DNA of 64,000 nt from positions 51,825 through 115,824 of the forward strand of contig JAHFEG010000002.1 of assembly GCA_023248595.1 (NCBI GenBank). Reading direction: 5' to 3'. This DNA comes from Myxococcales bacterium (GTDB lineage Bacteria; Myxococcota; UBA727; JABDBI01). A model generated the notes under the pieces. That model had not been told where the DNA came from, did not search any database, and saw only the letters and a program-made list of their open reading frames with translations. Shown in pieces: positions 22,825-57,747 of the stretch (the first letter of the stretch is position 1; the number at the start of each line of letters is the position of its first letter). A program made the position numbers and the translations under genes.

Positions 22825-22835
22825 TTTAATCCCCC

Positions 22836-24028: not shown

Positions 24029-24515
24029 GCCCTCCTTTCAATGCGCATACCAATTTAAATTGATACACATTGCTATTTTTTATTTTTTTAGACTGCGTTG
24101 AAGTCAGACTAACAGTCGAAAACACAGGATTTTTAGACAACATACTGATAAAATCAGCTAGAATATCATTCGACACTGCATAACCATTAAGCACAACATT
24201 TTTTTCTGTCTGCAACCATTCTGTTAACCAGACTTTTTTTGGAATCGCCAAAGATACAGCAGAAAGCAATTGCTTCTCAATGCCCCTTTCTTTTTCAAGT
24301 TGCTCTATCAATTGTTCTTTTGCTTGAAGCATATCGTGACTGGAAACAGTCGAATTCATTTGCTGGCCCAGATGACTAAATTGATTAATTTCTTGCTGCG
24401 CCTGCAATACTTGGCGATTCTTATTGTCAATTTGGTGGGAAATATAAAAATAGACAGTTGTCATCGCAACAGCATTCACAATTAAGACAATTATTATAAT
24501 CAAAAAATAGCGCAC
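24018..24515 (-). CDS. pilN: PilN-like inner-membrane protein
   Basis: It has an N-terminal TM and a coiled coil. The segments ...KKVWLTEW...VLNGYAVSNDILADFISML...YQFKLVCAL fit the PilN pattern. Confidence 0.55.
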   Translation of the reverse strand: MRYFLIIIIVLIVNAVAMTTVYFYISHQIDNKNRQVLQAQQEINQFSHLGQQMNSTVSSHDMLQAKEQLIEQLEKERGIEKQLLSAVSLAIPKKVWLTEWLQTEKNVVLNGYAVSNDILADFISMLSKNPVFSTVSLTSTQSKKIKNSNVYQFKLVCALKGGRDD

Positions 24516-24575
24516 AGGGATATTCTCATTATGTTTATAAATTAAGCCTAATAATTTGCTTACATTACAACCATT

Positions 24576-25445
24576 CTACCAGTTTCCTAAAAAGATGGCT
24601 AATTCTTGGCTCATCTTAGAAATTTGGTGTCCCCATAATGCCACTTCTAGGCCTGCTAAAGCAAGAAACGGTCCAAAAAAAATAGCTTGCGCTGGTGGCT
24701 GCCAACCATCTTTTGTAGGCGTTATCTGCGGCTTAATAATTAAAAAAGCAATAATCCCCTGAATACATGCCAATAAAATAACATACGGCAATCCCAAGAT
24801 ACCCACGTAGGCGCCTATCCCTGCCAAAAGCCAAGGGTCACCCCATCCCATCGCAAATTCATCTGACTTTAACCGACCGAGGCGTCTTAAAACCCATGTA
24901 GAAGCGATTAAAAATGCAGCAAAGAATGAGAAACCAAAGACGCTTCCTAAAACGCGTGCTCCAAACTGTACAGATTGATAAGAAGAATCGTTTTGCCAGC
25001 TACTTATTCCACCAAAAACAAGGCCCGTCACAATTAAAAATACAGGTAACGATAAAGGAATTAACCAGGTATCTATGTCAATGAAAGCAATCGCTATTAA
25101 GATAGCAATGAAAATAAATAATTCTAAAGTCACCCACTGGAAACCGAATTGAAGCCACAATGCTAAAGCAAAACCGCCCATTACCAATTCAATAAAAGGA
25201 AGGCGTCCAGATATAGATGTTTTACAGTAACGACATCGACCCCCCAAAACAAACCAGGAAACGATGGGAATTAAATCGTAATAAGCGATAGAGCATTTGC
25301 AACTCATACAATGTGATCGCGGCCATAAAATTGACATCCCTACGAGCGGAAAACGCAAAATAACCACGCCTAAGAAACTTCCAACAATTGTACCAATGAT
25401 AAAGAAAAGGAAGACAAGCCCAATTTCAAAAAACGAAAAAACCAT
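24576..25445 (-). CDS. pilD: Prepilin peptidase (A24 family)
   Basis: It has the N-terminal Zn tetracysteine motif (CMSCKCSIAYYDLIPIVSWFVLGGRCRYCK), and the polytopic A24 peptidase body with conserved Asp-containing loops. Confidence 0.8.
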   Translation of the reverse strand: MVFSFFEIGLVFLFFIIGTIVGSFLGVVILRFPLVGMSILWPRSHCMSCKCSIAYYDLIPIVSWFVLGGRCRYCKTSISGRLPFIELVMGGFALALWLQFGFQWVTLELFIFIAILIAIAFIDIDTWLIPLSLPVFLIVTGLVFGGISSWQNDSSYQSVQFGARVLGSVFGFSFFAAFLIASTWVLRRLGRLKSDEFAMGWGDPWLLAGIGAYVGILGLPYVILLACIQGIIAFLIIKPQITPTKDGWQPPAQAIFFGPFLALAGLEVALWGHQISKMSQELAIFLGNW

Positions 25446-42010: not shown

Positions 42011-42254
42011 AACCTGCAGAACCTATTAACCCCTGGCGACCTACGCTGGGCATTTGCTCGTCTGCTCGAAGACTTAAGTCTAACGGGACTGCATGTGTCA
42101 TAGGCTCTACACCTTCAATATCTACTTTTTGTAGACTATCCACATATTTAGTTATCTCACCTAAATGATGCTGCATGTGTTTTACTTCTTCATCGTTCAG
42201 AGATAATCTTGCCAATCGCGCCAATTTTCGAACTTCTGCTATTTCAAAAACCAT
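41970..42254 (-). CDS. gatC: Glu-tRNA(Gln) amidotransferase subunit C
   Basis: 94 aa; MVFEIAEVRKLARLARLSLNDEEV... is a typical GatC opening. It lies directly 5' of gatA. Confidence 0.7.
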   Translation of the reverse strand: MVFEIAEVRKLARLARLSLNDEEVKHMQHHLGEITKYVDSLQKVDIEGVEPMTHAVPLDLSLRADEQMPSVGRQGLIGSAGYEDGLIKVPKIIE

Positions 42255-42318
42255 TATTTTTCCTATAAGATGCGGTATCCTGTACGATGAAAATCACCAT
42301 GAAAAGGGGGTTGCCTTA

Positions 42319-42837
42319 ATGAACTTAAACCTTTTGTTATATCTTTTCGCCACATTGACGTTGAGTGGCGCGGTCGGTGTCGTATTTTTTCGTCACTTTT
42401 TATATGGCATTTTATCTTTACTGCTAACTCTGCTTAGTTTATGCGGGCTTCTATACATGATAGGAGCAGAAATTCTAAGCGCCATGTTATTTTGGCATCT
42501 AGGGATAACGAGTATATTAGTTCTTTTGCACACCTTTTTTCTGATTGGTCCACAAAATAGCCATAAATCTCCCAGACGTCTCGTCCCCGGCAAATTCTTT
42601 TTTGTAGTTGCAGTGCTTTACACAGCCACCTTTCTTATCGGCATCCCTTCTTTTCATGTTTTTAAAATTAATCCCGCACCTATTGATATCAAGGTTCTTT
42701 ATCATCTTTTCCAAACAGAACATGCTTTTGCCATTTTCTTGCTTCTTTCCCTAACCCCATTTATTCTCATCAGTAGCCTATTGCTCATCAGACAAGATAA
42801 AAACAGAAACAAAGAAATAAACAGCGTTGGACACTAG
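42319..42837 (+). CDS. NuoJ/ND6-like small polytopic membrane protein
   Basis: AAGGGGG lies 8 nt before the ATG. The pattern MNLNLLLYLFATLTLSGAVGVVFF...GAEILSAMLFW resembles NuoJ (ND6) helices 1-3. It sits immediately upstream of the NuoK-like gene. Confidence 0.45.
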   Translation: MNLNLLLYLFATLTLSGAVGVVFFRHFLYGILSLLLTLLSLCGLLYMIGAEILSAMLFWHLGITSILVLLHTFFLIGPQNSHKSPRRLVPGKFFFVVAVLYTATFLIGIPSFHVFKINPAPIDIKVLYHLFQTEHAFAIFLLLSLTPFILISSLLLIRQDKNRNKEINSVGH

Positions 42838-42886
42838 CACTTCTTTTTGGTTAAAACTAAAATGAAACTTAAAGCAGGGCTTTAAA

Positions 42887-43186
42887 ATGCCATTCAATCT
42901 TCTCTTCATTTTATCTGGCGCATTAATGATTCTAGGCATTTGTGGTGCCTTGTGTCGTCGGAATTTACTTGCCATTTCCTTATGTTTGCATGTCGCCTTC
43001 CTGGGCATCATTCTTTTGATCGCGACTTGTTTTGTGGAACATGGTGACATCAAAAATATTTCGTTGGCGCTTATTTTAATTGCGATCTTCTCGCTGCAAA
43101 TGATGTTTACAGGCGGCCTCGTTATTTTTATATATCGCAATCAGGGCACTCTTCATATTGATGAAATGAGGCAACTACGTGGTTAA
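42887..43186 (+). CDS. nuoK: NuoK/ND4L-like 3-TM subunit
   Basis: 99 aa. ...CRRNLLAISLCLHVAFLGIILL...ALILIAIFSLQMMFTGGLVIFIYRNQGTLHIDEMRQLRG aligns with NuoK (RRNLL...LE.M...AAE...GLAL...R...L.ID...EMRG), but the conserved acidic residues are altered. Confidence 0.65.
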   Translation: MPFNLLFILSGALMILGICGALCRRNLLAISLCLHVAFLGIILLIATCFVEHGDIKNISLALILIAIFSLQMMFTGGLVIFIYRNQGTLHIDEMRQLRG

Positions 43187-43192
43187 ACGCTT

Positions 43193-44452
43193 ATGACAAC
43201 GTCAATCAATTTATGGGCCATGATAGGATCTTACTTATTAGCAGCCATCTTGTCGCCCATCACTGTTCGACTTCTAAAAACATTGAAAAACAAATTTTTT
43301 ATTATTTCTATTTGCATACTTAATCTGATCTTATGTCTCCAAATTAGCGCCAGTGCTTATTGGAATTCTGTTTCCCTTTCTGCTCTTCAAACAACATGGC
43401 CACCCATTTCTTTTGACTTAAGCTCCTTTGCGCCTTGGAGTTACTTCGGCGCTGCTTTATCGTTGGGCGGGGGGCTGGCCATTTTTTTTATTTCTAGGCA
43501 AGATTTTCATAAAACCTCTGTTTTATTCTTAATTGAATTAGCCTTTTTAGAAACGCTTCTATTTTCAAATCACATCATCATCACTGCTACTTTGACTGTT
43601 TTGTCCGGACTGCTCAGCAGCATTCCATTTTGTTTTAGTCATCAAGCAGACAAACAAGTAAACACCCTCACATCTATTTTATTATGGCATCGCTTTAGTG
43701 ATTTGCTTCTTTTATTCAGCATTGCTTCTTGGAAAATGAATATTTCAATTGACTGGTGCGCCTCACTTTTTCTCATCGGCATTTTCATACGAACTTCTCC
43801 TTTAATGCTCGCACGACCTCTTCAGCTTAATTTAACTGCCATCTCGCCTGTTGCACGCACTTTTTATTTCTTTTCAATGGGCCTTGGCGGCGCTGTTCTT
43901 TTAATGAAAAGCGATTTGTTTTTTTTGATCCCTCAACACATAAGAATGTTTTTTATTTTACTGTATATTTTGTCGGCTATTTTCGCTTTTATTCGTATCT
44001 TCTTAAATCAAAATAACCTATTGATTCGCGCTGACATTGCATCTTTATGGATAGCGCTTTTCTATACCGCCATCTTAGCAGATGCATCTCACATCGCCTG
44101 TTTGTTTTTTATAAGCGCATGCTTGTTCTTTCCATTTTTATTTAATTGGGGGTTACACATAAACCCAACAATCGTCAAAGAAGAACCCTTATGGAAATTG
44201 CTCATTTTATCAGGCTGGAGAATAGACAGTTTGATAGAAATCATTTTTTTAAAAACAACGTGGTGCTTTGCTTATTTCACTAAAGAGATTGTCTCTGTAT
44301 TCATTTATATTCTATGGATACAAATTCCACAAATCAGCTTCAGTTTTGTGCAGATACTTTTAAGAATTTTAAATGCAGGCGGTGCTCAAAAAGCCATTAC
44401 GGTTGTTATATTAGGCTTAATTTTATTTCTTATTCACTACGTCGGAATTTAA
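43193..44452 (+). CDS. Polytopic membrane protein in the NuoL/MrpA-like position of the cluster (highly diverged)
   Basis: 419 aa with 11-12 predicted TM helices. It starts 6 nt after the NuoK-like stop. No WLPDA-type motif is recognisable. Confidence 0.35.
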   Translation: MTTSINLWAMIGSYLLAAILSPITVRLLKTLKNKFFIISICILNLILCLQISASAYWNSVSLSALQTTWPPISFDLSSFAPWSYFGAALSLGGGLAIFFISRQDFHKTSVLFLIELAFLETLLFSNHIIITATLTVLSGLLSSIPFCFSHQADKQVNTLTSILLWHRFSDLLLLFSIASWKMNISIDWCASLFLIGIFIRTSPLMLARPLQLNLTAISPVARTFYFFSMGLGGAVLLMKSDLFFLIPQHIRMFFILLYILSAIFAFIRIFLNQNNLLIRADIASLWIALFYTAILADASHIACLFFISACLFFPFLFNWGLHINPTIVKEEPLWKLLILSGWRIDSLIEIIFLKTTWCFAYFTKEIVSVFIYILWIQIPQISFSFVQILLRILNAGGAQKAITVVILGLILFLIHYVGI

Positions 44453-44454
44453 GT

Positions 44455-45840
44455 ATGACAATATCAGACAGCCAATTACTGCTCTTTTTGATCACTATCC
44501 CTGTTTTTTCAGCCATTTTTGTTTCGTGTGTTCCTCATTTTGATATGTCATCTGTAAGGCAAATTGCCACAACAATCCTAATTGTCTGGCTCGCACTTCT
44601 TCTTAAATGCGGTCATACACTTTTCCACCAAGTCACGCAAATTTCCTGGCATTTTAATGTTTCCTTATGGCTTGATAATAATATACTTAGTCTATCTCTG
44701 GGGCAACTTCAGTTGGTTTTATTACTCGCTCTTTGGTGCGCATTATTTAGCCTATTTTTTTTGAACAAATATACCATCGAAAACAATGGGCTATCTTTTA
44801 CCGTTATGACTTTGCTGCTGCTTGCTTTATCAACGCTAGCTATTTTATCATCCACCCCTGCCATCTCTCTTGTAACGGCAAGTTTAAGTTTATTTCTATT
44901 TCTTTACTTAGTCGCTCGCTTTGGTGGCACTCAAAAAGGTCAAGCGATCCTCCTCAGTAGTTTATTTTTTTTAGCCGTAGACCTTTGCTCTATTTCTGCC
45001 CTCTTTTTGCCAAAAACCATTTGGCAGTCACAAGGCTTTTATCTTTATTGGATAGCCCTCACACCTGCTCTTGCGCGCCTATTAATTCCATTTTTTGCAC
45101 CATTTTCTCGCATACTGTTCAATAATTGTTCTATTGCAATCATTATTTTGTACATTGCTTTTATGGTGCCCACTGGTGCAGCCTTACTATTTCAGCTCAA
45201 AAGCATACTTCTACTTTATCAGCCCATCACGATTTTAAACCCTATCCTCTCTATTTTGGTTTTTGGCAGTGTTCTTTTTAGTGCGTTCTGGGCGATTTCA
45301 GAAAAAGATCCTAGACAACTGGGCCTGACATTGCTTGTCTTCTATAATGCTATTTTCATCAGTTTTGCCCTCGTTCCTATCGATGGATACTTAACGAAAC
45401 TATCAACCTATCTGCTTTTTTGCACAATCATCTGTGCGTCTTTTACGCTGCTTGTCGGACAATTGCTTTTTGTTAGGCATGGCCCCCAATTAAATAACAT
45501 GACCATCAACCACCTCTGGCTGGCTAGCTTGGCAATTTGGTTTCCTTTGCCTGGCTTTGGAATGGGCACACCCTTCTGGTTAGGTTATACGCATTTATTG
45601 ACACCTACTTTTCTGTCTCCTGCTCTTCACGTCCTTTTTTGGTTAATCGTTTTTTTATTATTAACCACAGCCTTGGTTCAAAATTATTTTCGCCATACAG
45701 AACCTCAAAATGCAATCAGCAGTATCGCCGAATTGCGATCACGCACTCTTCCTTCTTTTAAATACGTTTGGACGACCTTCACTATCGTCTTGCTTTTGTG
45801 TTTTGTTAGCTCAACCTACTTCTTGAATGCAGGTGTCTAA
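44455..45840 (+). CDS. Polytopic membrane protein in the NuoM-like position of the cluster (highly diverged)
   Basis: About 460 aa counted from the first ATG after the upstream stop, with 13-14 predicted TM helices and no conserved antiporter motif that I recognise. Confidence 0.35.
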   Translation: MTISDSQLLLFLITIPVFSAIFVSCVPHFDMSSVRQIATTILIVWLALLLKCGHTLFHQVTQISWHFNVSLWLDNNILSLSLGQLQLVLLLALWCALFSLFFLNKYTIENNGLSFTVMTLLLLALSTLAILSSTPAISLVTASLSLFLFLYLVARFGGTQKGQAILLSSLFFLAVDLCSISALFLPKTIWQSQGFYLYWIALTPALARLLIPFFAPFSRILFNNCSIAIIILYIAFMVPTGAALLFQLKSILLLYQPITILNPILSILVFGSVLFSAFWAISEKDPRQLGLTLLVFYNAIFISFALVPIDGYLTKLSTYLLFCTIICASFTLLVGQLLFVRHGPQLNNMTINHLWLASLAIWFPLPGFGMGTPFWLGYTHLLTPTFLSPALHVLFWLIVFLLLTTALVQNYFRHTEPQNAISSIAELRSRTLPSFKYVWTTFTIVLLLCFVSSTYFLNAGV

Positions 45841-47273
45841 TGTTAAATGTACCAACCCCTATATTGGTGGCATCGATAACATTGCTACTCAGCGCTATTT
45901 TATGCCTATTACTAGAGGTTGCTGGCGTCAAAGAAGGATTTAAAAAAACAGGAAATAAACCACACATCGTTCTACTTGTTTTTTTATCAGTTATCAGTAT
46001 TAGTATCTACATCATAACGAGCCCTACTTCAGAGTTTAATCTCATATTTGCTTTCGATTTAACAGCAAAATGGGGCATTTTTTTTTCTTGCTTAATGACT
46101 CTTTTTTGCCTGGTCTTAAGCGTGTTAGAATCTCGCAGTTTACGTCAAGAACGAGGTGAAAAATACGCGCTTTTATTAGTCGCGTTAATGCTTACTATCG
46201 TCATATGCATGACAAAAGATATCTTATATTTTATGATATGCGTCAGTCTATGGACTTTGATTATGATTGCGCTTTGCGCTTTTGATAATTATCGTCGTTT
46301 AGGCTCTGAAGCAGCAGCCAAACTTTTCGTAAAAGGCAATTTTTTTCTTATTGCCATGGCTCTCGCAATTGCTTTTTCCTATGCTTGCTCTGGTTCAACT
46401 CAATTTGAACTCATTGCCAATGCAATAAAAGATCCTTCAAATGCCGTCATGGCAAAAATAGCTTGGTCATTTATTTGGATTTTAGTTCTTTCATTTTTCG
46501 GCATTGCTCCCTTTTTCTGGTTTCATGTCGATTATTTAGATGGCGCATCTTCCTTCCCTTCAACAGTTTTTACCTTTGGAAGTTTTATACCTGGCAGCGT
46601 TGTTCTGCTACGTATGATTGAAATTAGTCAAATGACTGATGCGAGCCGGCATGCACTTTGGGATTTGCTTTGGTTTTTTGCTGCACTTTCAATTTTAATT
46701 CCTGGCTTCATGGCGATTGATCAAAGGCGAATCGCCCGTATGTCTGTTTATTTATTCATGCTACAACCTGGACTGTGGCTCACATTGGCTCTATCAATTC
46801 CTACTTTAATCTCGAAAAGCCCTGTTGTTTTTTTCTTGTTTCTCACCAATGTTGCCGTTGCCATTCCCGGTGTTATATTAGGTTTGAATTTTTTAAAAAT
46901 CCCTTCCCACTTAGAGATGACCTGGGAAGATTATGCAGGTGCTGGCCGTAAGCATCCCTTCATTGTCACAGCTTGGCTCATTGCTTTTTCCTCGCTGGCG
47001 GGTATTCCAGGAACATTGGGATTTTATATTCGCTTGAAAGCCTTACAAGATTTGTTTTTAAAGGAAGAATTTTTAGGCGGCGCCCTTATCGTCCTAAGCA
47101 TCATCATTAGCGCAGCACCAGTTGCGAGATTAGCTGTCTTTTTGTTTGCGAAACCTGCACATCATGAATTCAGTCGGCAACATCCAACAAAACACACTGT
47201 TCTTCTTTTTTTATGCGCTGCGGTAATCATCTTCAGCAGCATGTTACCTCAAGCTTTTCTGCAATTTATCTAA
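45840..47273 (+). CDS. NuoN-like antiporter-type membrane subunit (diverged)
   Basis: The segment FGIAPFFWFHVDYLDGASSFPSTVFTFGSFIPG resembles the NuoN/MrpD core (VPFHxWxPDVYEGAPTPVSA). It has ~14 TM helices, and its ATG overlaps the upstream stop. Confidence 0.45.
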   Translation: MLNVPTPILVASITLLLSAILCLLLEVAGVKEGFKKTGNKPHIVLLVFLSVISISIYIITSPTSEFNLIFAFDLTAKWGIFFSCLMTLFCLVLSVLESRSLRQERGEKYALLLVALMLTIVICMTKDILYFMICVSLWTLIMIALCAFDNYRRLGSEAAAKLFVKGNFFLIAMALAIAFSYACSGSTQFELIANAIKDPSNAVMAKIAWSFIWILVLSFFGIAPFFWFHVDYLDGASSFPSTVFTFGSFIPGSVVLLRMIEISQMTDASRHALWDLLWFFAALSILIPGFMAIDQRRIARMSVYLFMLQPGLWLTLALSIPTLISKSPVVFFLFLTNVAVAIPGVILGLNFLKIPSHLEMTWEDYAGAGRKHPFIVTAWLIAFSSLAGIPGTLGFYIRLKALQDLFLKEEFLGGALIVLSIIISAAPVARLAVFLFAKPAHHEFSRQHPTKHTVLLFLCAAVIIFSSMLPQAFLQFI

Positions 47274-48907
47274 AATTTAGTCACACCATGATTCAAGCGC
47301 ATTAACAAAGCCTCTCCATGGCCTTTTCCTAAAATCAACTTCACTTTATCTTCATAAACAAAACTTGTCGTTGTTTCGATATGGGGTACATGATGACAAG
47401 AACGACAAACACTTTCAGGAACTTCACGCTTAATCAATTTTTTATCACCGCTGACTGCATGCAAACTTCCAGGACCATGACAAGATTCGCACTGCACATT
47501 TTTACGAAAATCGATTTCATTCACTTTGCAATAGCCACCAGGTTCCATAAATCCAATACTGTGACATCCAATACAACTTCGATCGGATTCTTTATGCTTC
47601 TTCTCTAAGGTTGACCATGCAATCGCATGGCCTGATCTTTGTTTAATCGATAAACCTTTTTCGTCTTTCGCATTCATTTCCCAAACAGAATTTTCCCAAA
47701 CATTAACAGCCGCTTGATGGCAATTCTTGCAGGTTTGTACGCCAACATAAGTCGGCATTCCAGCCTTTACTGATTCGCAATTAACTTTTTCTTCACACTT
47801 TGCAACTAAACGGGGTAACGATTTTTCGTAAGCAAGGCGTTTTTTTTGTACCTCAAGCATCGGCGGTATTTCCTTACGAAGCGCAATCGTTCTCACCGAG
47901 AAATAAGGCCCTTGGATTTCACCGAAATTGCTTTGCATTTTTTGGGCTTTCGCTAATTCTGTCTCTATATTTTTGAGTTGTTTCTCTAAAAAAGAACGCC
48001 GCTCTAATGTTGCGTCTTTGATGTGCCTTTTTAAGGATTGCGCACGATTGAGCAATAGACGAGAACGTCTTTCACTTTTTTCTTTTCTATCATCTATCTG
48101 AAAATGGCTCGTTTTTTTTAAAGAAATATTCTTAAACTCAACGACACCTAAATATTGACCTTGCATTCCCGCAGATATGAACCAAGGCCCCTGCTCCTCC
48201 AATAATTCCGGCAATAAAGGGACTTCACTCATTTCTTGTCCTAAAATGACCACGTCAACATCTGATACACTTTGAAACCAGGTTTTCACAATTGATGTCG
48301 GTGCCTGCGCCACTGCCACAATAATATCAGCCCCCTCATTTTTTAATCGCTGTATTTCTTTTATGAAATCGGGTTTTAACAATGCTGCCTTTTCAAGTTC
48401 TGAGCCCACTCCTATTAAACCCAATTTTACCCCTGATTGGTTCAAAATTTGTCCTTGAAACGGAGCGTAATTCAAAATCGGGATTTGATGCTTCTGTAAA
48501 AAAGAACGATAAAATTGATCGCCGCGGGTTAAATCAAAAGGTCCAGGTATAGTCCCTGCAACTTTTAAGTTTTGGTAGGTTGAAAGTAGAACATCAAGCC
48601 TGGCTTCATCTTGACACAAATCAACGTCGGCCTTCTTTTCAGCAGAATCAAAAAAAAGATTGCCGGCGTCTATAAATAATAAGCGATTTTGAAAAGATTT
48701 TTGGAACTCGTCGATAATAAAGGCTAATCTGTCCAATCCGCCTAAAGGATCAGCGGTACAACCACAAGGTTCAATATAACCTCGCACATTCGTTGTAAAA
48801 AGCAGCGCAAAGGTGTCTTTGTTTTCTTTTGCACACTGACAATTGCTTAAAAAAAGCAAAAACAACATCCGTAAAAATTTGCACTGCAGATAAAATGCCC
48901 TCATCAA
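47270..48907 (-). CDS. Tetraheme c-type cytochrome with N-terminal degenerate metallophosphatase/5'-nucleotidase-like domain; probable lipoprotein
   Basis: Four CxxCH motifs lie within ~120 aa (CKNCH, CIGCH, CESCH, CRSCH). The N-terminal region LLFTTNVRGYIEP...IDAGNLFF resembles calcineurin-like motifs I-III, but the metal-ligand Asp/His are substituted. The N-terminal signal has a Cys (LFLSNCQC). Confidence 0.6.
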   Translation of the reverse strand: MMRAFYLQCKFLRMLFLLFLSNCQCAKENKDTFALLFTTNVRGYIEPCGCTADPLGGLDRLAFIIDEFQKSFQNRLLFIDAGNLFFDSAEKKADVDLCQDEARLDVLLSTYQNLKVAGTIPGPFDLTRGDQFYRSFLQKHQIPILNYAPFQGQILNQSGVKLGLIGVGSELEKAALLKPDFIKEIQRLKNEGADIIVAVAQAPTSIVKTWFQSVSDVDVVILGQEMSEVPLLPELLEEQGPWFISAGMQGQYLGVVEFKNISLKKTSHFQIDDRKEKSERRSRLLLNRAQSLKRHIKDATLERRSFLEKQLKNIETELAKAQKMQSNFGEIQGPYFSVRTIALRKEIPPMLEVQKKRLAYEKSLPRLVAKCEEKVNCESVKAGMPTYVGVQTCKNCHQAAVNVWENSVWEMNAKDEKGLSIKQRSGHAIAWSTLEKKHKESDRSCIGCHSIGFMEPGGYCKVNEIDFRKNVQCESCHGPGSLHAVSGDKKLIKREVPESVCRSCHHVPHIETTTSFVYEDKVKLILGKGHGEALLMRLNHGVTKF

Positions 48908-48910
48908 AAC

Positions 48911-49546
48911 TTATCCTATGTCTTCAACTTCCTTTTCTTCATCAAAGCGGCGTCCTAAAAGCTCAGCGGCCAAAGGCAAATCCAGCTCTGAATCTAACCT
49001 ACCTCTATAAGCTTGAAATCCGCAATAAATACAAGAAAAATAACCATCACCACTCGAAGCCCTGGCCAATACAACTCCCATACTATGGCATTTGGGGCAT
49101 TCACTTCTAGAATATTGTCGTTTTTTAGGACCGCCAGCGATCGGACCACCGTCTTTCTTATAGTTTAAGGATATTACAGCTGGCTTTTTTTTAGAAAGAG
49201 TTGTGCGCCCATCTATATTAGCTGCATTTTTCACTGCTAAAGTAACCCCGGCTTCCTTCGTGCTTTTGTTTTTATTATTTTTCTTAAATTGCATACGATA
49301 ACAATCAATTGCTTCTTTTATTTTATCTTCCATCCTTGAAACTTCTTCCAATGTTTTCCAGCTTTCTAAAACGGTTTCTTCCAAGGTCTCGCGTGCTGTC
49401 ATTTCTTCCCGCAGAAGCATGCCTGGTTTTGCCTGAATGCGGTAGCCTGTCAATATTTTGGCAACAGTTGTTTTTGATAGTTTAGTATAAGGACGCTTAG
49501 TAAGAGTCAGAATTTCATGCAATAACGAATCCCTGGCCGTCATCAT
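48911..49546 (-). CDS. Hypothetical protein with C-terminal 4-Cys zinc ribbon
   Basis: CPKCHSMG...CIYCGF lies near the C-terminus. The rest is charged and helical. Confidence 0.4.
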   Translation of the reverse strand: MMTARDSLLHEILTLTKRPYTKLSKTTVAKILTGYRIQAKPGMLLREEMTARETLEETVLESWKTLEEVSRMEDKIKEAIDCYRMQFKKNNKNKSTKEAGVTLAVKNAANIDGRTTLSKKKPAVISLNYKKDGGPIAGGPKKRQYSRSECPKCHSMGVVLARASSGDGYFSCIYCGFQAYRGRLDSELDLPLAAELLGRRFDEEKEVEDIG

Positions 49547-49694
49547 CTTCTAATTCCCCTTGTTAAAAATAAAGCAAACATGCTTTTTGCTTTTCATAAA
49601 TGACTCTTTGTTGCCTTACAAGAAAATTGACGACAAAAAACAAAACACGTTCTTTTTTTTACCCCCAATATTGTAGAAGCCTAAGGATCAAGGC

Positions 49695-52600
49695 ATGATA
49701 GCCGCAATGCGCTATTTTTTTTTAATCAAGACATGGATCTGGATGGTGGTTTTTTGCTGGGCCTCACACCCTCTTATTGCTAATCCAGTTTTGGATATTC
49801 TAAATCAATCGATTCCAGACCTCGTCCTTAAAATCATTCATGAAAACATTAACGGACATATTCAAGTTCAAAAGGTGACGTTCTCTGCACCTTCTACGCT
49901 CATTTTTGATCAGCTCCAGTTAAAAGATCACCAGCAACAAACTGTGGTTAGTATTAAAAAAGTGACCCTTGATCTTTCTTTGCTATCCTTATTGATTGGA
50001 AAAATAAAAGCGGCTTCTATTATAGCCGAGAATCCTGATTTCCATCTGGAAACAAATGAAGGGGAACTCAATCTTTCTAAAATTTTTTCAAAAATTTCCA
50101 CAAAAAAAACAGACACGCTGCTTCCTCTCATCGATTTAAGCCATATTCAAATTAACAACGGCCGTGTGACGTGGATCGACGAGGGAAATACTAAATTTTT
50201 TTTTGATAAAATTTTCAGTTCTGGACAGATTAAGTTAGCGCCCCAAGGTGCTGAAATCCACGTTATGTCCTTAAAAAGTCGACAAGGAAATTTCTCTTTT
50301 GAACAAAAGAAATGGAACATTCAGGAATTGGTTTTGGAGAATGCATTTTACAAGAATCAACTTTTAAAATTTAAAAATCTAACGGCCAAATTACTTGATA
50401 CCCCCATTCAAGCTCAAGGCAGCATCTACTTTCAAGGACAGCGCTTTTTAATCAAGTCCCAAATAGGACCCCTCGAAATTTTTGACTTGTCCGTCAAAAA
50501 AACCCTATTAGATTTAGAAATTGACACCAAACTTGTTTTGCTCAAAAAAGCGAGCCTGGAATTAAATGACAGTGCAACCATTTGGGCACAAGGCACACTT
50601 GACTTAAATACGAATGCCTTAAAAATAAATTCTAAAATAAATCGATTATCCTTTAACACTTTAAGAAAAACACTAAATCTTGACATAGGGGCGGACGCTC
50701 ATCTGTCGGGACAGGTAGACGCATCGGGTATTATTTCTGACAATAATCCCATCCAAATTAAGGCAAACACAGATGTCGATAATTTAACCGCGCATGATTT
50801 CCAATTGCCATCTTCTAGGCTTGCCTTGGATCTTCTTTTTACACCACGAAAAAATATAAAATTGATTAAAGCAAGTTTAAATGGAAGTGCTTTCAGTTTA
50901 AGCCTTACTGGCAATATTGATTTAGAAACCAAAAACAGAACCATCGCTTTCGATCTAGATGCCCAAAATCCACACCTTTTTTACAGTAAAATACCTGAAG
51001 ATATCTTAGCAAAAGGATTTCACGCAACGGGTCAACTCGCAGGCTCTCCTCAAGAATTATCGCTTCAGGCGCAATTGCAATTAGATGCATTCCAAAAAGA
51101 CACGACCTTTGGTAAAAATTTGTCCGCTGCACTCCATATCAACCAGCACACCATCTCTCTTAAAAATATAACCGGAACACTGGCTGCAGGGCATGTTCAA
51201 GGAAATGTATTTATCGATAGAAAAAATAATAAAGCTATCTCCGGTGGGCTTCAATTGAGTGATGCCTCTTTCAATCAAATACCAATTCCAGCATCGCTAC
51301 GTTCGCAGATCAGCGGCAATATTCATTCTCAAATCAGCATCTCAGGAAATTTACAACAGCCCAAATTACAAGCAAAAACCCAATTCTTAAACGTTCATCT
51401 GCAGAATTTATTTTTTCAAAAAATTGAGACCAGACTGACCTATTTCGATCATCAAATCCAATTGAACGGACTAGAAGCTCATATGCCGTATGGCGACATC
51501 AGTGCACCTCTCATAACCATCAATTTACTTAAAAAAAGCATCCAAGGCTTGCTCGTCGTGCATCACTTATCGCTTCAAGAGATACCGCAATTGAGCAAAT
51601 ACGACGTTATGGGTATTGCCTCAGGTTCACTGCAAATAAGCAACAATTTTGATCAACCAAAAATTGAAGGATATTTAAGCTTAAAAAATGTCACCTGGAA
51701 AAAACAAGAAATTGGAAACGGCAGAACTTTTATCTGGTATCAGCCTAGTCAAAATCCATTTTTACAATTGAGCGGTGAACTGAAGCAAGAAGATGCCTTA
51801 ATTCTTTATCGTTCAACAATTGATATTGCTCATGAAAAAATTCGCGCAGAAATTACCTTGAAAGATATCTCCATATTACCGTGGGCATCGCTACCCTCCT
51901 CCTTCACCATGCCCCTTAAAGGAAAAATTTCTGGGGAATTACAAATTAATGGTTCACTCAGTTTGCCCAACATTAAAACCCAAATTATTTCCTCTGATAT
52001 TCAATATCAAGAAAATATCACAAGCGATTACCCTGTACCGCGCCTAGAAAAGCAATGGGTATCCGCAGGACCCCTTCTCTTGTCTGCTGAAACCAAAAAT
52101 GGACAAATTACCGCTTCTTTATGCGCATTTCCTCAAAATTTTTCGCAGGTCACGTGCACAAAAGATGACCGCTTGCATCTCACTATCAACGGTTTTTTGA
52201 CTTCGTTGCATGATTATGATTTACAAGTAGATGGCACATTCAATCTCAAAAAGCTTGAACAATGGATTCGCTTTATTAAAAAAGAATTTAATTCAGTTGA
52301 TGCAAGTTTCAAAATTCATACTCGCCTGACTCAAAAAACACAGCAAAAAAGGCTCACATTTAATGGCCAAGCAGACTTCGCATCTCTTTTTATTGCAATG
52401 CCGGGCTTGGTGCCAGTTACCATAAAACAAGAGGCAAAAATTCAGTTTGACAATCATGGCATTCAATTTCTTTCTCCTGCTCTTTTATCTCTGGCAACAG
52501 GTCAATTATCTATCAGTGGTTTTGCTTTTGATTCGCAACTAAAATTAGATTTAAGCGGCCGCATACCGCTCGTTTTTACTAAATATTTTATACCTTTTTT

Positions 52601-53858
52601 TACATCAGCTGATGGTCTTGCCACAGGAGAATTAAAACTCCGAGGCTCATTTAAAAACCCCTTTATTGATGGACACATAACCCCAGACAAAGGCGCTTTT
52701 ATCAAGCCAAGTGTCATTTTCGATGACATTGTTTTTAATAGTGGCCAAATTAATTTTAAGAGTAATGAATCTCACAAAACTCTTTCTGTTTGGTTTGACA
52801 AACTTGATATGATGGTCGGTGATGGGCACGCCCACTTAAATGGAAAAGCCACGCTACATACACAATATCAGCCTAATTCAAATCGTTTTGCTTTCTGGGA
52901 TTTGCAATTGCAAGGCAATGAAATTGTTTTAAGGAACCAAAGAGATTGGATAGAAACAAATTTTAATGTCTTGCTTCACACAAGTGATAAAAAAGACACT
53001 CTTTCTGGAAAACTCAATATTAGCGATGGCTATTTATTTAAAAAATTCTCCTTTCAAAATTTTATTTTATCTTCTGATAAGACAAATACCTTCGAACTAC
53101 CCAAATGGCTGTGGCCTGTCCAAGTTGATATGAAAATTGCAGCCTCTTCGTTTCATGCCCAGACACAAATGTCTGCATTCTTCATTGATAGTCAGTTGAC
53201 AGCAAACTTCGATTTGATTGGCACTTTAGCCTCGCCCAGACTAATTGGCTCCATGGATATAGTCGAAGGAATTTTTAAATTTCCATTACTTTATTTTGAA
53301 ATCCCATCAACATCTATACCATTTAAAAATACACCAGGCCGCTTTGTTGATCCACAAATCCGCATCTTCGCTTATGCTGATTTACCTCACAAGCGTTTTA
53401 ATTTATCAGACGACACCTCTGTCGAATTAAGCCTGATGGGTAATCTTGAACAAATGAAATTGGACATTAAAACGCTCTCTGGAGATAAAACGTTTGATCG
53501 CAATAGACTACTTTTATTGTTGCTGGGAGCCAGTAATGGCGGAACTGAAATGCTGGAAGAAATGCTTTCATCTTATACCGGAACACGTATTTTAATTAGC
53601 AGCGCACTACAAACAGAAGGGGTTGCCACTCAGGTGCAGTGGCAGCTAAATCCCAGACTAGAGTTTGAGGGAACGGCAAAAACAACTGCTGCAAACGTTA
53701 ATTTGCAAGATCTTAAATTAAAATTAATGCTTTTTGATCATCTGCCTTTTGGCCATCAACTTTTCTTAGAAAGCGTTCTTTTCTCACCTGCTACAGAAGG
53801 ATCTGATACGAATATAAAAGAAGATCTTCGACTAAAATTTAGAGTATTAGAACAATGA
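49695..53858 (+). CDS. tamB: TamB/AsmA-like translocation-and-assembly module protein
   Basis: It has an N-terminal signal anchor (FFLIKTWIWMVVFCWASHP). About 1300 aa of beta-rich repeats with (I/L)xGx(I/L)xL periodicity follow, then a DUF490-like C-terminus. Its stop overlaps the start of the Omp85 gene. Confidence 0.55.
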   Translation: MIAAMRYFFLIKTWIWMVVFCWASHPLIANPVLDILNQSIPDLVLKIIHENINGHIQVQKVTFSAPSTLIFDQLQLKDHQQQTVVSIKKVTLDLSLLSLLIGKIKAASIIAENPDFHLETNEGELNLSKIFSKISTKKTDTLLPLIDLSHIQINNGRVTWIDEGNTKFFFDKIFSSGQIKLAPQGAEIHVMSLKSRQGNFSFEQKKWNIQELVLENAFYKNQLLKFKNLTAKLLDTPIQAQGSIYFQGQRFLIKSQIGPLEIFDLSVKKTLLDLEIDTKLVLLKKASLELNDSATIWAQGTLDLNTNALKINSKINRLSFNTLRKTLNLDIGADAHLSGQVDASGIISDNNPIQIKANTDVDNLTAHDFQLPSSRLALDLLFTPRKNIKLIKASLNGSAFSLSLTGNIDLETKNRTIAFDLDAQNPHLFYSKIPEDILAKGFHATGQLAGSPQELSLQAQLQLDAFQKDTTFGKNLSAALHINQHTISLKNITGTLAAGHVQGNVFIDRKNNKAISGGLQLSDASFNQIPIPASLRSQISGNIHSQISISGNLQQPKLQAKTQFLNVHLQNLFFQKIETRLTYFDHQIQLNGLEAHMPYGDISAPLITINLLKKSIQGLLVVHHLSLQEIPQLSKYDVMGIASGSLQISNNFDQPKIEGYLSLKNVTWKKQEIGNGRTFIWYQPSQNPFLQLSGELKQEDALILYRSTIDIAHEKIRAEITLKDISILPWASLPSSFTMPLKGKISGELQINGSLSLPNIKTQIISSDIQYQENITSDYPVPRLEKQWVSAGPLLLSAETKNGQITASLCAFPQNFSQVTCTKDDRLHLTINGFLTSLHDYDLQVDGTFNLKKLEQWIRFIKKEFNSVDASFKIHTRLTQKTQQKRLTFNGQADFASLFIAMPGLVPVTIKQEAKIQFDNHGIQFLSPALLSLATGQLSISGFAFDSQLKLDLSGRIPLVFTKYFIPFFTSADGLATGELKLRGSFKNPFIDGHITPDKGAFIKPSVIFDDIVFNSGQINFKSNESHKTLSVWFDKLDMMVGDGHAHLNGKATLHTQYQPNSNRFAFWDLQLQGNEIVLRNQRDWIETNFNVLLHTSDKKDTLSGKLNISDGYLFKKFSFQNFILSSDKTNTFELPKWLWPVQVDMKIAASSFHAQTQMSAFFIDSQLTANFDLIGTLASPRLIGSMDIVEGIFKFPLLYFEIPSTSIPFKNTPGRFVDPQIRIFAYADLPHKRFNLSDDTSVELSLMGNLEQMKLDIKTLSGDKTFDRNRLLLLLLGASNGGTEMLEEMLSSYTGTRILISSALQTEGVATQVQWQLNPRLEFEGTAKTTAANVNLQDLKLKLMLFDHLPFGHQLFLESVLFSPATEGSDTNIKEDLRLKFRVLEQ

Positions 53859-56800
53859 TACGATTGTTACTGCCAGCGATTTTTGCTGGATGTCTATCAA
53901 TTGCAGCAAATTCGACACCTGCTGATCCAAATTCTGCATTGATTACCAACATAGAAGCGATCGTAAACCTGCCGATCGATAACAATGAAAACAACGAATT
54001 GGTTCACTACTTAGCAGCATTACTGCAAAATAAAGCAGATAGTCATGCTCTTGCATTAGCAAGGAATCGTCTAGAAATCCTTAAGATATATAAAAAAATA
54101 TCCTGCGATTTCAAAAGCCATTCAGGTCAAACTACATTGTTATGCCAGCTTGAACGAATCCCAATCATCAGAAAAATTATTATTCAAAACTTACCCGTCA
54201 TCTTGCTTGAAAAGGATTTACGTAAACGATTATCAATTGAAACTGGCGAACCTTTTGATATTGATACTACAGATAGCGATATACAAATGTATCAAATACA
54301 AAAAACTGTCACATCGTTCTTGGAAAGACAAGGATATTTTGATGCCAAAGTAACCGTTGATTACAAATCCATCATCAACACCTCCACTCTAGATATCCTT
54401 ATAAATATCGAAACTGGCTCATTTCGCCGTGTTAACCGCGTGACTTTGTCACCGAGCATTACCTTTGAACAAGCTAAGATAAGAGGAATGTTTCAAAACA
54501 TGTGTCGCTACTTTCGTTATACTTTTGAAGCTATCGGTATGGGAGGTTTCAATTGTTATTCTCGTGAAAGAGAAAGAGATACCATACAAGATTTACAAAT
54601 TTTACTAGACGAAAAAGGCTACAATACAGCCTCTATATTGACACAAAAAACCATTTTAGATCCACTCGATTCAAATACACCTAAAAAATGCAGAGCCACA
54701 CGCCAAGATTTAAATAAATTGAAAAAAAATGGGATTAAACCACCCTCGCGGTGCCTAAATATGCATGTAACTGTTGATTTGGGGCCTCAAATCATTACCG
54801 AATTTGTTTTTGATAAAGCACAAACACTCACTCTTTCGCCTACAGAAATATTTTTCAGAAATTTCTTTACTGTCGAGTTTTTCTCAAGATTTCTGAATGC
54901 TTCTTTTACAGGTGCAAGCTGGCCTGCCGATGAAACGATTCTTGTCAATGAACTGAGAAATGCCCTTACTTTTTCTACTTCACACAAAATTGATGAAAAA
55001 GAGATTGCTTATTCTGTGGAAAACATAAAATCTATCTTAGCCAAAAGAGGCTACACGCTCGCAAACGTCAAAACTGAGCAAGATAATATACATGATAAGA
55101 TTATCTCTATCAAATTTTTTATCATGGCTAAAAATCCTTTAGCTGTCACTAAAATTTTCTTTGTTGGTGATCCTATTTTTTCGAATCATAAAATTTTAAA
55201 AGAAGTTTCTTTATCGCTTTTACCTCGCTCTGCTTTTCATTCTGGACATTTTAACAACGTTTTACTTGCCGCTGATACAGAGAAAATAAAATATTTCTAT
55301 ATAAATCGAGGCTATCATGATGTTCAAATTAAGACAGAAAGCAGAGTAGAGACCGACGGCGTACACATATGGTACCAAATTATTCCAGGTCAAAAATACA
55401 CAATTCAAGAACTCGTTATTGAAAATAGCCACCCCGAATTATTACCGCAAATACTGCCTTTGCTATCTAACTGCCAACAGGCCAAAAACAGTCCAATTAA
55501 ACCACTAAAATCAACAGATATCTGCACAAAAAGCCCGTATTTACCTCAGTTTATTGTTGATGATGAAAATCGCATTCTTGATGTCTACCGTTCCAATGGC
55601 TATCTTCATACAAAAGTAAAAACAAAAGTTGTCAAAAATGGATTCAACGCTCTATTGGTTTTTTATCTAAATCCACCTGAAGAAAATCAGCAGACATACG
55701 TCAAGGGAATCCTAATTGATGGTAACACTGTCACGCGAAGTTCAGCCATGATAAGACAGTTAGGAACTCCTTTATTTCTACCAGACACAATTCTTAATTT
55801 GCCTAAATTAGAAGAAGGAGTTGCCAGACTTAGGCAAACCAACCTGTATTCGCGCATCAATTACCGTTACCTAAATGAAAATAAAGATAGCACCTACATC
55901 TTACTTTCCGTTGTAGAAAAGCCTTCTTTAACAATTGATTTATCCCTTAGCTTTAGTACCGACAACCTCTTCTCTCTGGGTGGCGAAATCCATGAATCCA
56001 ATTTATTTGGAAACATGTTACAACTGACAAGCGAAATTGATTTAGGTTTATTCTGGGGTCGAAAAAGCAACATTAAAAATACCTTTCGATGGCCTTGGAT
56101 TTACGGCTTACCACTTAATTTTGAATTAGTCGTTCCTCAAATTATTTACACAAAAAATCCAACCAGAGATCCGCCGGAACGCCATTTGTTAGCGCAAGTA
56201 ATTGCCAGTTTGGAGTGGCAACTTTCTTCCACCCTCTACCCTTACATGAAATATGAAACCCGTTGGGATAAATGGCAGCAGCAATATGAACCTTCTCAGT
56301 CCAATCCGAATTTTATCAATATTTTTAAAAATTGGGATGGACTTTTGTTTGTTTGGGAAGAATCAGCCACGGTACGAAGTGTGTTAACACCTGGTGTCAA
56401 CTATATGAATGTTGATCATCCTTTTAATCCCAAGCGGGGCTTAAAGCTTAATTTGTCAACTGATCTTAGTTTCTCGTTATTGGGCGCCCAAATTCCTTTC
56501 CAAATTGTAAATGCCCAAATGGCCCATTATTTTACGGCCGGCCCTTTTACTTTTGCTTCTCAGCTAATTTTCCGTCGTGCTTTTATTGAAAATCCAGATT
56601 CTACATGGTGGGTTTTAAAATATCAATCTGATATGGATTCTATTGGTGGCGATCGCAGTGTTAGAGGCTATCAACCAGGAACCATTGGTATTTGGGGACC
56701 GATGCTGAACAATCGCGACGGAAAAATCCTGCTCGACAAGGACAACAATCCCGTCATGGGTTACCACCCTGGGAATTTAAGTTTACAAGGTAATCTTGAA

Positions 56801-57094
56801 ATTAGATTTCCCATTAAAAAGAGTTTTCTAATTGGCGATCTTGACGGCGCTATTTTCACTGACTTTGCTTTCATTGATAACTGTAAAACCCTCTTTAGTT
56901 GCAACAATCTCAATTCCGTTTGGGAGCAATACAATACTTCTAGCCAGATTGGCTGGTCAGTTGGCTTAGGCCTTCGTTACGTCCTGCCCATAGGACCTAT
57001 TTCCCTGGATTACGCTATCTCTCCCATCAAGCATGCTCCTAATTGGATAGGCCGCGAATCCAGAATTCATCTTCTTTTTGGATATTCATTTTAA
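53855..57094 (+). CDS. Omp85-family outer-membrane protein (BamA/TamA-like), unusually long (1079 aa)
   Basis: It has a signal peptide and POTRA-like repeats. The C-terminal beta-barrel ends in the OMP signature ...RIHLLFGYSF, with a terminal Phe. Confidence 0.6.
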   Translation: MIRLLLPAIFAGCLSIAANSTPADPNSALITNIEAIVNLPIDNNENNELVHYLAALLQNKADSHALALARNRLEILKIYKKISCDFKSHSGQTTLLCQLERIPIIRKIIIQNLPVILLEKDLRKRLSIETGEPFDIDTTDSDIQMYQIQKTVTSFLERQGYFDAKVTVDYKSIINTSTLDILINIETGSFRRVNRVTLSPSITFEQAKIRGMFQNMCRYFRYTFEAIGMGGFNCYSRERERDTIQDLQILLDEKGYNTASILTQKTILDPLDSNTPKKCRATRQDLNKLKKNGIKPPSRCLNMHVTVDLGPQIITEFVFDKAQTLTLSPTEIFFRNFFTVEFFSRFLNASFTGASWPADETILVNELRNALTFSTSHKIDEKEIAYSVENIKSILAKRGYTLANVKTEQDNIHDKIISIKFFIMAKNPLAVTKIFFVGDPIFSNHKILKEVSLSLLPRSAFHSGHFNNVLLAADTEKIKYFYINRGYHDVQIKTESRVETDGVHIWYQIIPGQKYTIQELVIENSHPELLPQILPLLSNCQQAKNSPIKPLKSTDICTKSPYLPQFIVDDENRILDVYRSNGYLHTKVKTKVVKNGFNALLVFYLNPPEENQQTYVKGILIDGNTVTRSSAMIRQLGTPLFLPDTILNLPKLEEGVARLRQTNLYSRINYRYLNENKDSTYILLSVVEKPSLTIDLSLSFSTDNLFSLGGEIHESNLFGNMLQLTSEIDLGLFWGRKSNIKNTFRWPWIYGLPLNFELVVPQIIYTKNPTRDPPERHLLAQVIASLEWQLSSTLYPYMKYETRWDKWQQQYEPSQSNPNFINIFKNWDGLLFVWEESATVRSVLTPGVNYMNVDHPFNPKRGLKLNLSTDLSFSLLGAQIPFQIVNAQMAHYFTAGPFTFASQLIFRRAFIENPDSTWWVLKYQSDMDSIGGDRSVRGYQPGTIGIWGPMLNNRDGKILLDKDNNPVMGYHPGNLSLQGNLEIRFPIKKSFLIGDLDGAIFTDFAFIDNCKTLFSCNNLNSVWEQYNTSSQIGWSVGLGLRYVLPIGPISLDYAISPIKHAPNWIGRESRIHLLFGYSF

Positions 57095-57144: not shown

Positions 57145-57747
57145 ATGATAGATACTAAATTGATTATTGTTGCCTTTATTGCTGTTTTATTTATTTTTAT
57201 CATAGCGGAATTTTTAATCCCTGAAAAATACAGAATGGTATTCAAATACGGATTAAGAAATTGCTCTAGCGTTTTCTATTTTATTGTATTGATTTTTATT
57301 TTCAATGATCGAAATAACGCAAGCATCGCAGAAGCAAGAGATCGTGTAATTAAATTAAATAGTTTTACCAATGATGCCATTATGAATTTATTAAACACAT
57401 TGCGACAAGAACCTAAAGAATTAAAAGGAATTTATAACGAAATTTTTGAAGACAAACCTGAAAATGGCAACCCTTTGACATATCATGAGAACTTATTTTT
57501 ATATCAAGTATTTACAACTTTTTTAAATTTATACCGTGACCATGCTGTCGCAGGAAAAGAAGCCGCTTCTCATTATGCTAATCTATATAGTTCATGGGAT
57601 AATTTTATCATGCGTGTTTTGCGCTCTTCTAAAGTAAGGAAATACTGGAATGATAACAAAAGCATGTTTGACAGTATCGACTTTATCCAATTTATAGACA
57701 ATAAACTGCCAGCGAAAATTTCCACTAATAGAAACTACCCACCATAG
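57145..57747 (+). CDS. Hypothetical membrane-anchored protein (AT-rich gene)
   Basis: 200 aa with two N-terminal hydrophobic helices. It is very AT-rich and has no motifs. Confidence 0.35.
   Translation: MIDTKLIIVAFIAVLFIFIIAEFLIPEKYRMVFKYGLRNCSSVFYFIVLIFIFNDRNNASIAEARDRVIKLNSFTNDAIMNLLNTLRQEPKELKGIYNEIFEDKPENGNPLTYHENLFLYQVFTTFLNLYRDHAVAGKEAASHYANLYSSWDNFIMRVLRSSKVRKYWNDNKSMFDSIDFIQFIDNKLPAKISTNRNYPP

Follow-up and report, generated by a model that had tools for sequence, protein, structure and literature searches.

A tetrahaem cytochrome fused to a degenerate 5'-nucleotidase-like domain: a Cys-type relative of the UshA-like selenoproteins and a candidate periplasmic thiol oxidoreductase

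A stretch of 64,000 nucleotides from a Myxococcales bacterium (contig JAHFEG010000002.1), here called the window and meant at its full length, carries at 47270..48907 on the (-) strand a genuine gene for an exported four-haem cytochrome fused to a nucleotidase-like domain. The gene is a new Cys-type, lipoprotein-clade member of a catalogued, functionally uncharacterised family, and the defining feature of its product is a Pro-Cys-Gly-Cys loop, P47-C48-G49-C50. We propose, with somewhat more belief than doubt, that the protein is a thiol-based periplasmic oxidoreductase in which electrons pass between the C48-G-C50 centre and a c554-like tetrahaem wire. This function, read from the sequence, is suggested by the alternation of cysteine and selenocysteine (Sec) in the loop, a near-obligate fusion to the haem domain, the loss of the hydrolytic machinery and the signals for export. 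A preliminary description of the locus had overlooked both the loop and the kinship with NCBIfam NF041198, a family that already includes the haem domain.

Along the gene, a lipoprotein-type signal is followed by a degenerate 5'-nucleotidase-like domain, a helical hairpin and a c554-like tetrahaem domain. The product has 545 amino acids (aa) from TTG 48907, or 544 aa from ATG 48904, one codon further on and with AGGA 9 nt upstream; the 544-aa product (P0001) is the one called in public assemblies, at 100% identity. It has at least 685 homologues, the best 120 listed being 35-73% identical to it. A promoter and terminator scan of 47000-49900 gave counts no higher than those in shuffled sequence. 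For annotation, the gain is that a generic 'cytochrome c554 family' label becomes a specific two-domain architecture; what is of interest is less the window locus than the hypothesis on the family as a whole.

A loop in which cysteine and selenocysteine alternate

The loop (48758..48769, (-)) begins four residues past the motif-I glycine G43 and, according to the secondary structure of an AlphaFold2 model, lies in the beta1-alpha1 loop of the metallophosphatase fold. In active phosphoesterases, this is the loop that bears the first two metal ligands. Relatives were scanned with one genome per species, which gave 432 relatives, of which the best 80 loci were kept (labelled L below); conservation figures refer to a 62-sequence alignment of fused relatives from many phyla. 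All 62 carry P-C-G-[C/U], position 50 being Cys in 44 of them and Sec, encoded by an in-frame TGA, in the other 18. Invariant in the alignment are P47, C48, G49, C/U50, G56 and G82, followed by G43 and G57 (97% each) and by D125 and D218 (about 90%).

In 23 of the 80 loci, a wider motif count found codon 50 to be an in-frame TGA, flanked on either side by conserved coding sequence and, in most, near position 10000 of the locus: L018, L020, L022-L024, L026, L029, L031, L033, L035, L036, L046, L047, L050, L051, L055, L057, L060, L066, L067, L069, L075 and L079. A hairpin resembling a selenocysteine insertion sequence (SECIS) stands 13-16 nt past the TGA, its loop usually being GGUCU, and the mean fold z-score past the TGA is -1.35 versus -0.21 at the same place in the Cys forms. 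When translated, most of the 80 loci show the fused layout, x-C-G-[C/stop] and then four CxxCH. Codon 50 of the window gene encodes Cys and not Sec, making it a Cys-type homologue.

Where Sec and Cys alternate at a single position, this is a classical sign that the residue is catalytic and redox-active. The loop is also probably flexible, since the AlphaFold2 model gives it low confidence. It can be likened to the GCUG end of thioredoxin reductase, which is well established to hold an adjacent Cys-Sec pair, and to the CGU of SELENOF, where a close Cys-x-Sec pair on a flexible segment is proposed to cycle between selenenylsulfide or disulfide and the reduced state (PMC9304195), as we propose for the window family. 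More generally, CxU/CxC motifs are redox-active, the CGU of SELENOF being an example (PMC9304195). The likeness stops at the loop: SELENOF and thioredoxin reductase have an unrelated fold, and it is flavin/NADPH or thiols, rather than c-type haems, that supply their electrons.

A c554-like tetrahaem domain

The C-terminal domain (aa 386-535, 47303..47752, (-)) holds four CxxCH motifs in one frame, all on the (-) strand and all invariant in relatives: C393-K-N-C-H397 (47717..47731), C445-I-G-C-H449 (47561..47575), C473-E-S-C-H477 (47477..47491, within an invariant Q-C-E-S-C-H-G) and C501-R-S-C-H505 (47393..47407). With starts at nt 47731, 47575, 47491 and 47407, they span 113 residues, which bears out the preliminary description in its claim that four such motifs are packed into about 120 C-terminal residues. 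A six-frame translation of the whole window contains 11 CxxCH in total, and 200 shuffles of the window never brought more than two of them within 120 residues in any frame, so the cluster is far beyond chance.

The domain is recognized by Pfam as Cytochrome_C554 (PF13435; aa 392-478, 44.1 bits versus a cutoff of 20.8), and in a profile search of the Protein Data Bank (PDB) it matched the first three haem motifs of the Nitrosomonas cytochrome c554 (1bvb) at E=1.9e-14, motif 2 aligning with the second CxxCH of c554. The Nitrosomonas europaea protein (1bvb/1ft5; PF13435) thus has four haems and the spacing of its first three CxxCH in common with the window protein. Cytochrome c554, however, is a free carrier of 211 aa that works with hydroxylamine oxidoreductase, whereas the window domain is about 150 aa long and fused. 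Haem 2 of c554 is five-coordinate; the window domain, unlike c554 in this respect, has four conserved extra His that suggest bis-His haems. These candidate distal ligands, H427, H483, H509 and H530, are all invariant within the Myxococcota clade, and among the 62 relatives H427 and H483 are conserved in 100%, H530 in 77% and H509 in 61%. There would thus be enough conserved His for bis-His ligation of all four haems. In the Sec forms L018, L022 and L031, a Cys aligns near the C-terminal H530 position, a hint that one haem may be ligated differently.

No part of the protein is better conserved than the haem domain, with 85% identity to the closest relative versus 67.5% in the N-domain, and 59-70% versus 35-41% for the next relatives, a sign that the haem motifs are under selection in the lineage. 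Considering this, the N-domain might be a non-catalytic binding or anchoring module, a pseudoenzyme scaffold, and the whole protein a membrane-tethered electron shuttle of the c554 type. That the haem domain is the more conserved half fits such a scaffold, as does the existence of stand-alone c554-like tetrahaem proteins of 160-190 aa with the same motifs (L071, L074, L076, L078), and the metallophosphatase fold is known to have metal-free members. However, a scaffold would not preserve an invariant P-C-G-[C/U] loop across phyla, nor would it bear the cost of selenocysteine insertion at that loop, and we think it quite improbable.

A metallophosphatase fold with its metal ligands replaced

The core of the N-domain (aa 30-265, 48113..48820, (-)) has the fold of 5'-nucleotidases, UshA and SoxB, a layered alpha/beta sandwich, with the dimetal ligands replaced. 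An AlphaFold2 model, for which an alignment of 25 homologues was the input, has a confidence score (pLDDT) above 90 over most of aa 30-370; confidence is low for the loop at aa 44-52 and the haem domain falls below 50, the latter because the model has no cofactors. Foldseek matched the modelled N-domain to 5'-nucleotidases, UshA and SoxB, and the PDB profile search returned 5'-nucleotidase at about 1e-4 and SoxB at 3e-4. The 5'-nucleotidase-like fold that had been suspected from the sequence thus stands, in a restricted form: only the N-terminal catalytic domain of these enzymes is matched. Pfam found no Metallophos (PF00149) match in the window protein at E<=0.1 and no 5_nucleotid_C (PF02872) match, and in the place of the C-terminal substrate-binding domain of 5'-nucleotidases the model has a long helical hairpin (aa 274-324, 47936..48088, (-)) and then the cytochrome domain.

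Motif I, which is D-x-H-G in the active enzymes, reads T38-T-N-V-R-G43 (48779..48796, (-)), its positions 40 and 42 being variable across the family. The preliminary description had pointed to this substitution, and the remaining metal ligands prove to be replaced as well. We mapped the ligands of UshA by hhalign profile alignment and inspection; the UshA sequence was entered by hand and the probability of the alignment is only 34%, so that the mapping is supportive and not decisive. UshA D41/H43 correspond to N40/R42 within TTNVRG, D84 to N83, N116/H117 to P123 and a gap, H217 to Q201, H252 to Q224 and Q254 to M226; D120 alone is retained, as D125, which is 90% conserved. In other words, the motifs DxH / GD / GNH(E/D) / H / GH read NVR / GN / GP--FD / Q / GQ here, and the dinuclear metal site appears to be gone from the N-domain.

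These replacements bear on two alternatives. First, the protein could still be a phosphoesterase, a nucleotidase or a SoxB-like thiosulfohydrolase that was fused to a cytochrome by happenstance, as its fold and its distant sequence similarity to UshA, CD73 and SoxB might suggest. However, other residues stand in place of the dimetal ligands and the catalytic His, the protein has no nucleotide-binding C-domain and Pfam gives no Metallophos match. Compared with E. coli UshA, human CD73 and the Thermus 5'-nucleotidase, with which it has the fold of the metallophosphatase N-domain in common, the window protein has lost the dimetal ligands, the catalytic His and the C-terminal substrate domain, and has gained the CGC loop and the cytochrome. 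SoxB, in turn, keeps its di-Mn site and is a hydrolase, whereas the window protein scores only 18.7 bits on the SoxB model TIGR04486, whose cutoff is 550; no sox genes were found near the window gene. A surviving hydrolase is, in our judgement, extremely improbable.

Second, a new metal site may have arisen in the old dimetal pocket, where C48 and C50 or Sec, perhaps with D125 and N/D83, would bind one metal ion, either redox-active or substrate-activating, and the haems would feed a metalloenzyme. It is well established that Sec and Cys alternate at metal-ligand positions in formate dehydrogenase and [NiFeSe] hydrogenase; D125 (the counterpart of UshA D120) is 90% conserved, position 83 is Asn or Asp at the site of the old bridging ligand, and loading of simple metal ions in the periplasm is feasible. 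But six of the seven former ligands are lost and only two or three candidate ligands are conserved, on a flexible loop a C-x-C pair (i, i+2) speaks more for a redox disulfide than for a metal site, and no metal-chaperone or metal-transport genes recur nearby. We regard a new metal site as unlikely, though as less remote than either a scaffold or a hydrolase.

Export and a probable lipid anchor

The signal peptide ends in a lipobox-like L-S-N-C23 (48839..48907, (-)). Judged by the pattern [LVI][ASTVI][GAS]C at the end of the signal peptide, the window sequence LFLSNC is non-canonical in having Asn at -1; C23 is nevertheless kept in at least 90% of 25 aligned clade relatives, many of which have a canonical lipobox such as L-A-G-C. 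The lipoprotein type, which had been assumed from the start, is thus plausible, with the conserved cysteine in its favour and the atypical Asn against it. More distant relatives have plain signal peptides without the lipobox Cys, and N-terminal export signals are present in the window protein and in the relatives whose N-termini were inspected. The window protein is probably periplasmic and lipid-anchored, as far as these signals tell.

How the protein may work

We propose the following mechanism for the thiol-based oxidoreductase. The protein would be exported by the Sec pathway and, probably held by a lipid anchor, would face the periplasm. Its N-domain may have descended from metallophosphatases of the 5'-nucleotidase/SoxB type, losing the dinuclear metal site and the nucleotide-binding C-domain on the way, while an invariant Cys-Gly-Cys (Cys-Gly-Sec in many relatives) came to be placed in the former active-site loop and metal pocket. 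C48 and C50 would then go back and forth between dithiol and disulfide (a selenenylsulfide taking the place of the disulfide in Sec forms), acting on a periplasmic substrate, and the four c-type haems would relay electrons singly between the C48/C50 centre and periplasmic or membrane redox partners. Candidate substrates are disulfides or thiols, either of proteins or of low molecular weight, inorganic species of sulfur or selenium, and peroxide. The catalytic redox role of the loop, its communication with the haems and the direction of electron flow are inferences. In the best-supported reading, the protein would most resemble, in its working, a cross between a c554-type carrier and a CxU/CxC thiol-selenol protein on a SoxB/UshA scaffold.

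Several points weigh against this mechanism. AlphaFold2 confidence is low for both the CGC loop and the haem domain, and the distance between loop and haems is therefore not given by the model. Sec may also bind a metal, which it does in formate dehydrogenase and [NiFeSe] hydrogenase, so that the Cys/Sec alternation alone is no proof of a dithiol/disulfide cycle. The window protein scores 224.5 bits on NF041198, under the equivalog cutoff of 275. No neighbour that would name a substrate is conserved family-wide, most neighbours being housekeeping genes. Covalent attachment of haem requires Sec export together with a Ccm or Ccs maturation system; a Pfam scan of essentially all ORFs (open reading frames) of at least 120 aa found no ccm or ccs genes in the 64-kb window, which is uninformative for the whole genome. 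Finally, in the papers found the UshA-like CxU selenoprotein stands as table entries only, with no function.

A larger claim would be that the family is an undescribed enzyme class, in which periplasmic two-electron thiol or selenol chemistry is coupled directly to a one-electron c-type haem chain. We hold this to be possible and rather doubtful. If it were true, DsbA-like proteins or small sulfur or selenium compounds, for example, could be reoxidized or reduced via the respiratory chain independently of quinone, and what was once the active site of a phosphatase would have been turned into a redox site. A Sec or Cys in a gutted phosphatase active site, the near-constant fusion to four haems and the existence of Cys-only versions together make a hypothesis that can be tested by point mutants; the Cys-only versions occur in organisms that may be easier to work with.

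Family membership and breadth

The best NCBIfam match of the whole protein is NF041198, 'UshA-like (seleno)protein' (UshA_like_PCGU), at E=2.3e-66, in two matched stretches of which the best runs from aa 13 to 407 on profile positions 4-425 of 519. Of the Sec-type relatives tested, with U written as C, L022 scored 375 and L018 352 bits, and the Cys forms L042 (gammaproteobacteria) and L009 (Polyangia) scored 243 and 230 bits, just under the cutoff. As the match of L018 runs over positions 8-518 of 519, NF041198 already comprises both the pseudo-nucleotidase and the tetrahaem domain, and the window protein, considering its score below the cutoff, is an outlying Cys-type relative. It has the same two-domain architecture, P-C-G-[U/C] loop, four CxxCH and N-terminal export signal as NF041198, from which it differs in having Cys in the place of Sec and in its sub-cutoff score. 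The Myxococcota clade differs from NF041198 further in its lipobox, in a stretch inserted between haem motif 1 and H427, in one more conserved cysteine, C98, and in the C-terminal H509/H530.

An exhaustive HMMER search with the N-domain alone returned 911 clusters at 50% identity, and 67 of the 82 N-domain homologues of at least 430 aa carry xCGC and four CxxCH; the two domains are thus an almost obligate pair. Relatives were found in Myxococcota, Acidobacteriota, Gammaproteobacteria, Thermodesulfobacteriota (the former Deltaproteobacteria), Calditrichota, Nitrospirota and others. Selenoproteome surveys list the family as 'COG0737 UshA-like, CxU' (PMC2398784, PMC9312934, PMC13188914), and it has stood in selenoprotein lists since 2008 without a function assigned (PMC2398784, PMC13188914). 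The selenoprotein literature that we searched contains no comment on the haem domain of the family, and Haft's 2022 selenoprotein preprint does not mention the family.

A zinc-ribbon gene as the likely operon partner

Gene order within the clade was compared in eight relatives with 39-73% protein identity (L002, L003, L082-L086 and one further contig). Directly upstream of the window gene lies a 211-aa ORF (48911..49546, (-)) with a C-terminal zinc ribbon, CPKC..17..CIYCG, and no signal peptide. It stops 6 nt before the cytochrome ATG, whose Shine-Dalgarno sequence is inside its 3' end. An ORF of about 205-226 aa occupies this position on the same strand in all eight relatives, with start and stop overlapping or a few nt apart, and an alignment of seven relatives with the window sequence reveals a conserved N-terminus. 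The 211-aa ORF is likely to be the operon partner of the cytochrome gene, as this arrangement suggests, and being cytoplasmic, its product is more likely to be regulatory than catalytic. Searches of Pfam, NCBIfam and PDB profiles with the ORF gave only sub-threshold zinc-ribbon matches. Its 'CPKCH' was considered as a haem motif and rejected, the His being Arg in two of eight orthologues and a signal peptide being absent. Divergent from this pair, at 49695-57094 (+), are a TamB-like gene (1387 aa) and then a gene for a 1079-aa POTRA/Omp85 protein; the four-gene arrangement recurs in 8/8 clade relatives.

Beyond the clade, an all-against-all clustering of ORFs from the 80 genome loci, the L001 contig fragment and the window region revealed no family-wide gene partner; the recurring neighbours are clade-specific only. 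In seven Sec-type loci, which mostly bear the labels of metagenome-assembled genomes (MAGs) of Deltaproteobacteria/Thermodesulfobacteriota, an NrfH-like multihaem cytochrome lies within about 1 kb on the opposite strand, and five loci encode a fusion of a DmsE-like cytochrome with cytochrome b at a distance of up to 10 kb; these neighbours fit a respiratory electron-transfer role. A DsbA-like gene is immediately upstream in two gammaproteobacterial MAGs (L042:9257-9904, recognized by Pfam; L037:1152-2360, by its C-terminal sequence) and, as a weak case, adjacent in a deltaproteobacterial MAG (L062:11196-11822), which is a thin hint of thiol-disulfide chemistry. Other recurring neighbours were set aside as giving no functional clue. 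Beside loci of Blastocatellia and other Acidobacteria they are Maf (recognized by sequence), DUF721 (by NCBIfam) and GatC/GatA (by BLAST to window genes); beside gammaproteobacterial loci they are Rsd and miaB-phoH-ybeY-corC-lnt. Those that could be identified are housekeeping genes.

Organism and the convergent nuo-like module

The preliminary description found c-type cytochromes unexpected on the premise that the organism was chlamydia-like, and this premise is not supported. The closest relative, L002, with 72% aa identity, bears a Myxococcales MAG label and is collinear with about 18 kb around the gene, from the gene for phosphoenolpyruvate carboxykinase (PEPCK) to the Omp85 gene, and remoter relatives, where their source is named, carry the labels Myxococcota, Myxococcaceae or Deltaproteobacteria. 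Among the other genes of the window are those for PilN/O/P/Q and a prepilin peptidase, for a Ser/Thr kinase and for TamB/Omp85. The organism is Myxococcota-like, and c-type cytochromes are therefore not unexpected in it.

The cytochrome gene is convergent with a nuoN-like ORF (45840-47273, (+)), with which it has a 4-nt overlap; the convergence had been described correctly. It was further suggested that the cytochrome is the periplasmic electron partner of the adjacent nuoJKLMN-like module, and indeed the convergent adjacency is found in the window, L002, L083 (P0007) and L084 (P0011), over 42-73% identity, where a nuoN-M-L-K-J-like module lies downstream. However, the adjacency is absent in at least four relatives, whose downstream genes encode a bZIP-like protein and lipoyl synthase (L082), a glycosyltransferase (L085), FeoAB (L086) or other products (L003). 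Being convergent, the cytochrome and nuoN-like genes share no transcript. Where the adjacency is kept, in three relatives, it stands within a collinear housekeeping block: the unrelated gatC-gatA-HIT-PEPCK genes are collinear in the same loci, so that it looks inherited rather than selected. Moreover, the window nuoN-like ORF has no homologue in any of the 79 other genome loci, and to our knowledge NuoJ-N-type subunits carry no redox cofactors. The suggested pairing thus finds little backing, and we consider it improbable; the 211-aa zinc-ribbon ORF is the better partner candidate.

The module itself (42175-47273, (+)) consists of nuoJ, nuoK, a 419-aa ORF, a 508-aa ORF and the nuoN-like ORF, and is flanked by gatC-gatA. 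Its two middle ORFs have no Pfam match, and its surroundings lack nuoA-I. The third gene is far smaller in L083 and L084, where it measures 199-228 aa.

Other genes of the window

Two ORFs at 57735-63942 (-), of 669 and 1413 aa, have matches to the Met-zincin family DUF4953 and overlap by 44 nt. The match of the upstream ORF is limited to its first 19 residues, and a frameshift or an assembly error may have split one gene into this pair; comparable DUF4953 genes adjoin the cytochrome in L085. A type IV pilus block at 21868-25445 (-) encodes PilN, PilO, PilP, the N-terminal part of a secretin and a prepilin peptidase. The secretin ORF, of 318 aa and with AMIN and STN domains only, looks truncated compared with a full PilQ. 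At 18580-19635 (-), an FlhB/YscU-family export-gate protein (382 bits) stands alone among TPR-repeat genes, the window having no further flagellar or type III secretion genes.

A 1650-aa ORF at 2476-7428 (+) fuses an aldehyde dehydrogenase domain to class-III aminotransferase regions, and its end is overlapped by 140 nt by an AAT acyltransferase-like ORF (7289-8419). Finally, the ORF at 1361-2404 (+) encodes a GluR0-like prokaryotic ligand-gated ion channel with SBP_bac_3, Lig_chan and Ion_trans_2 domains.

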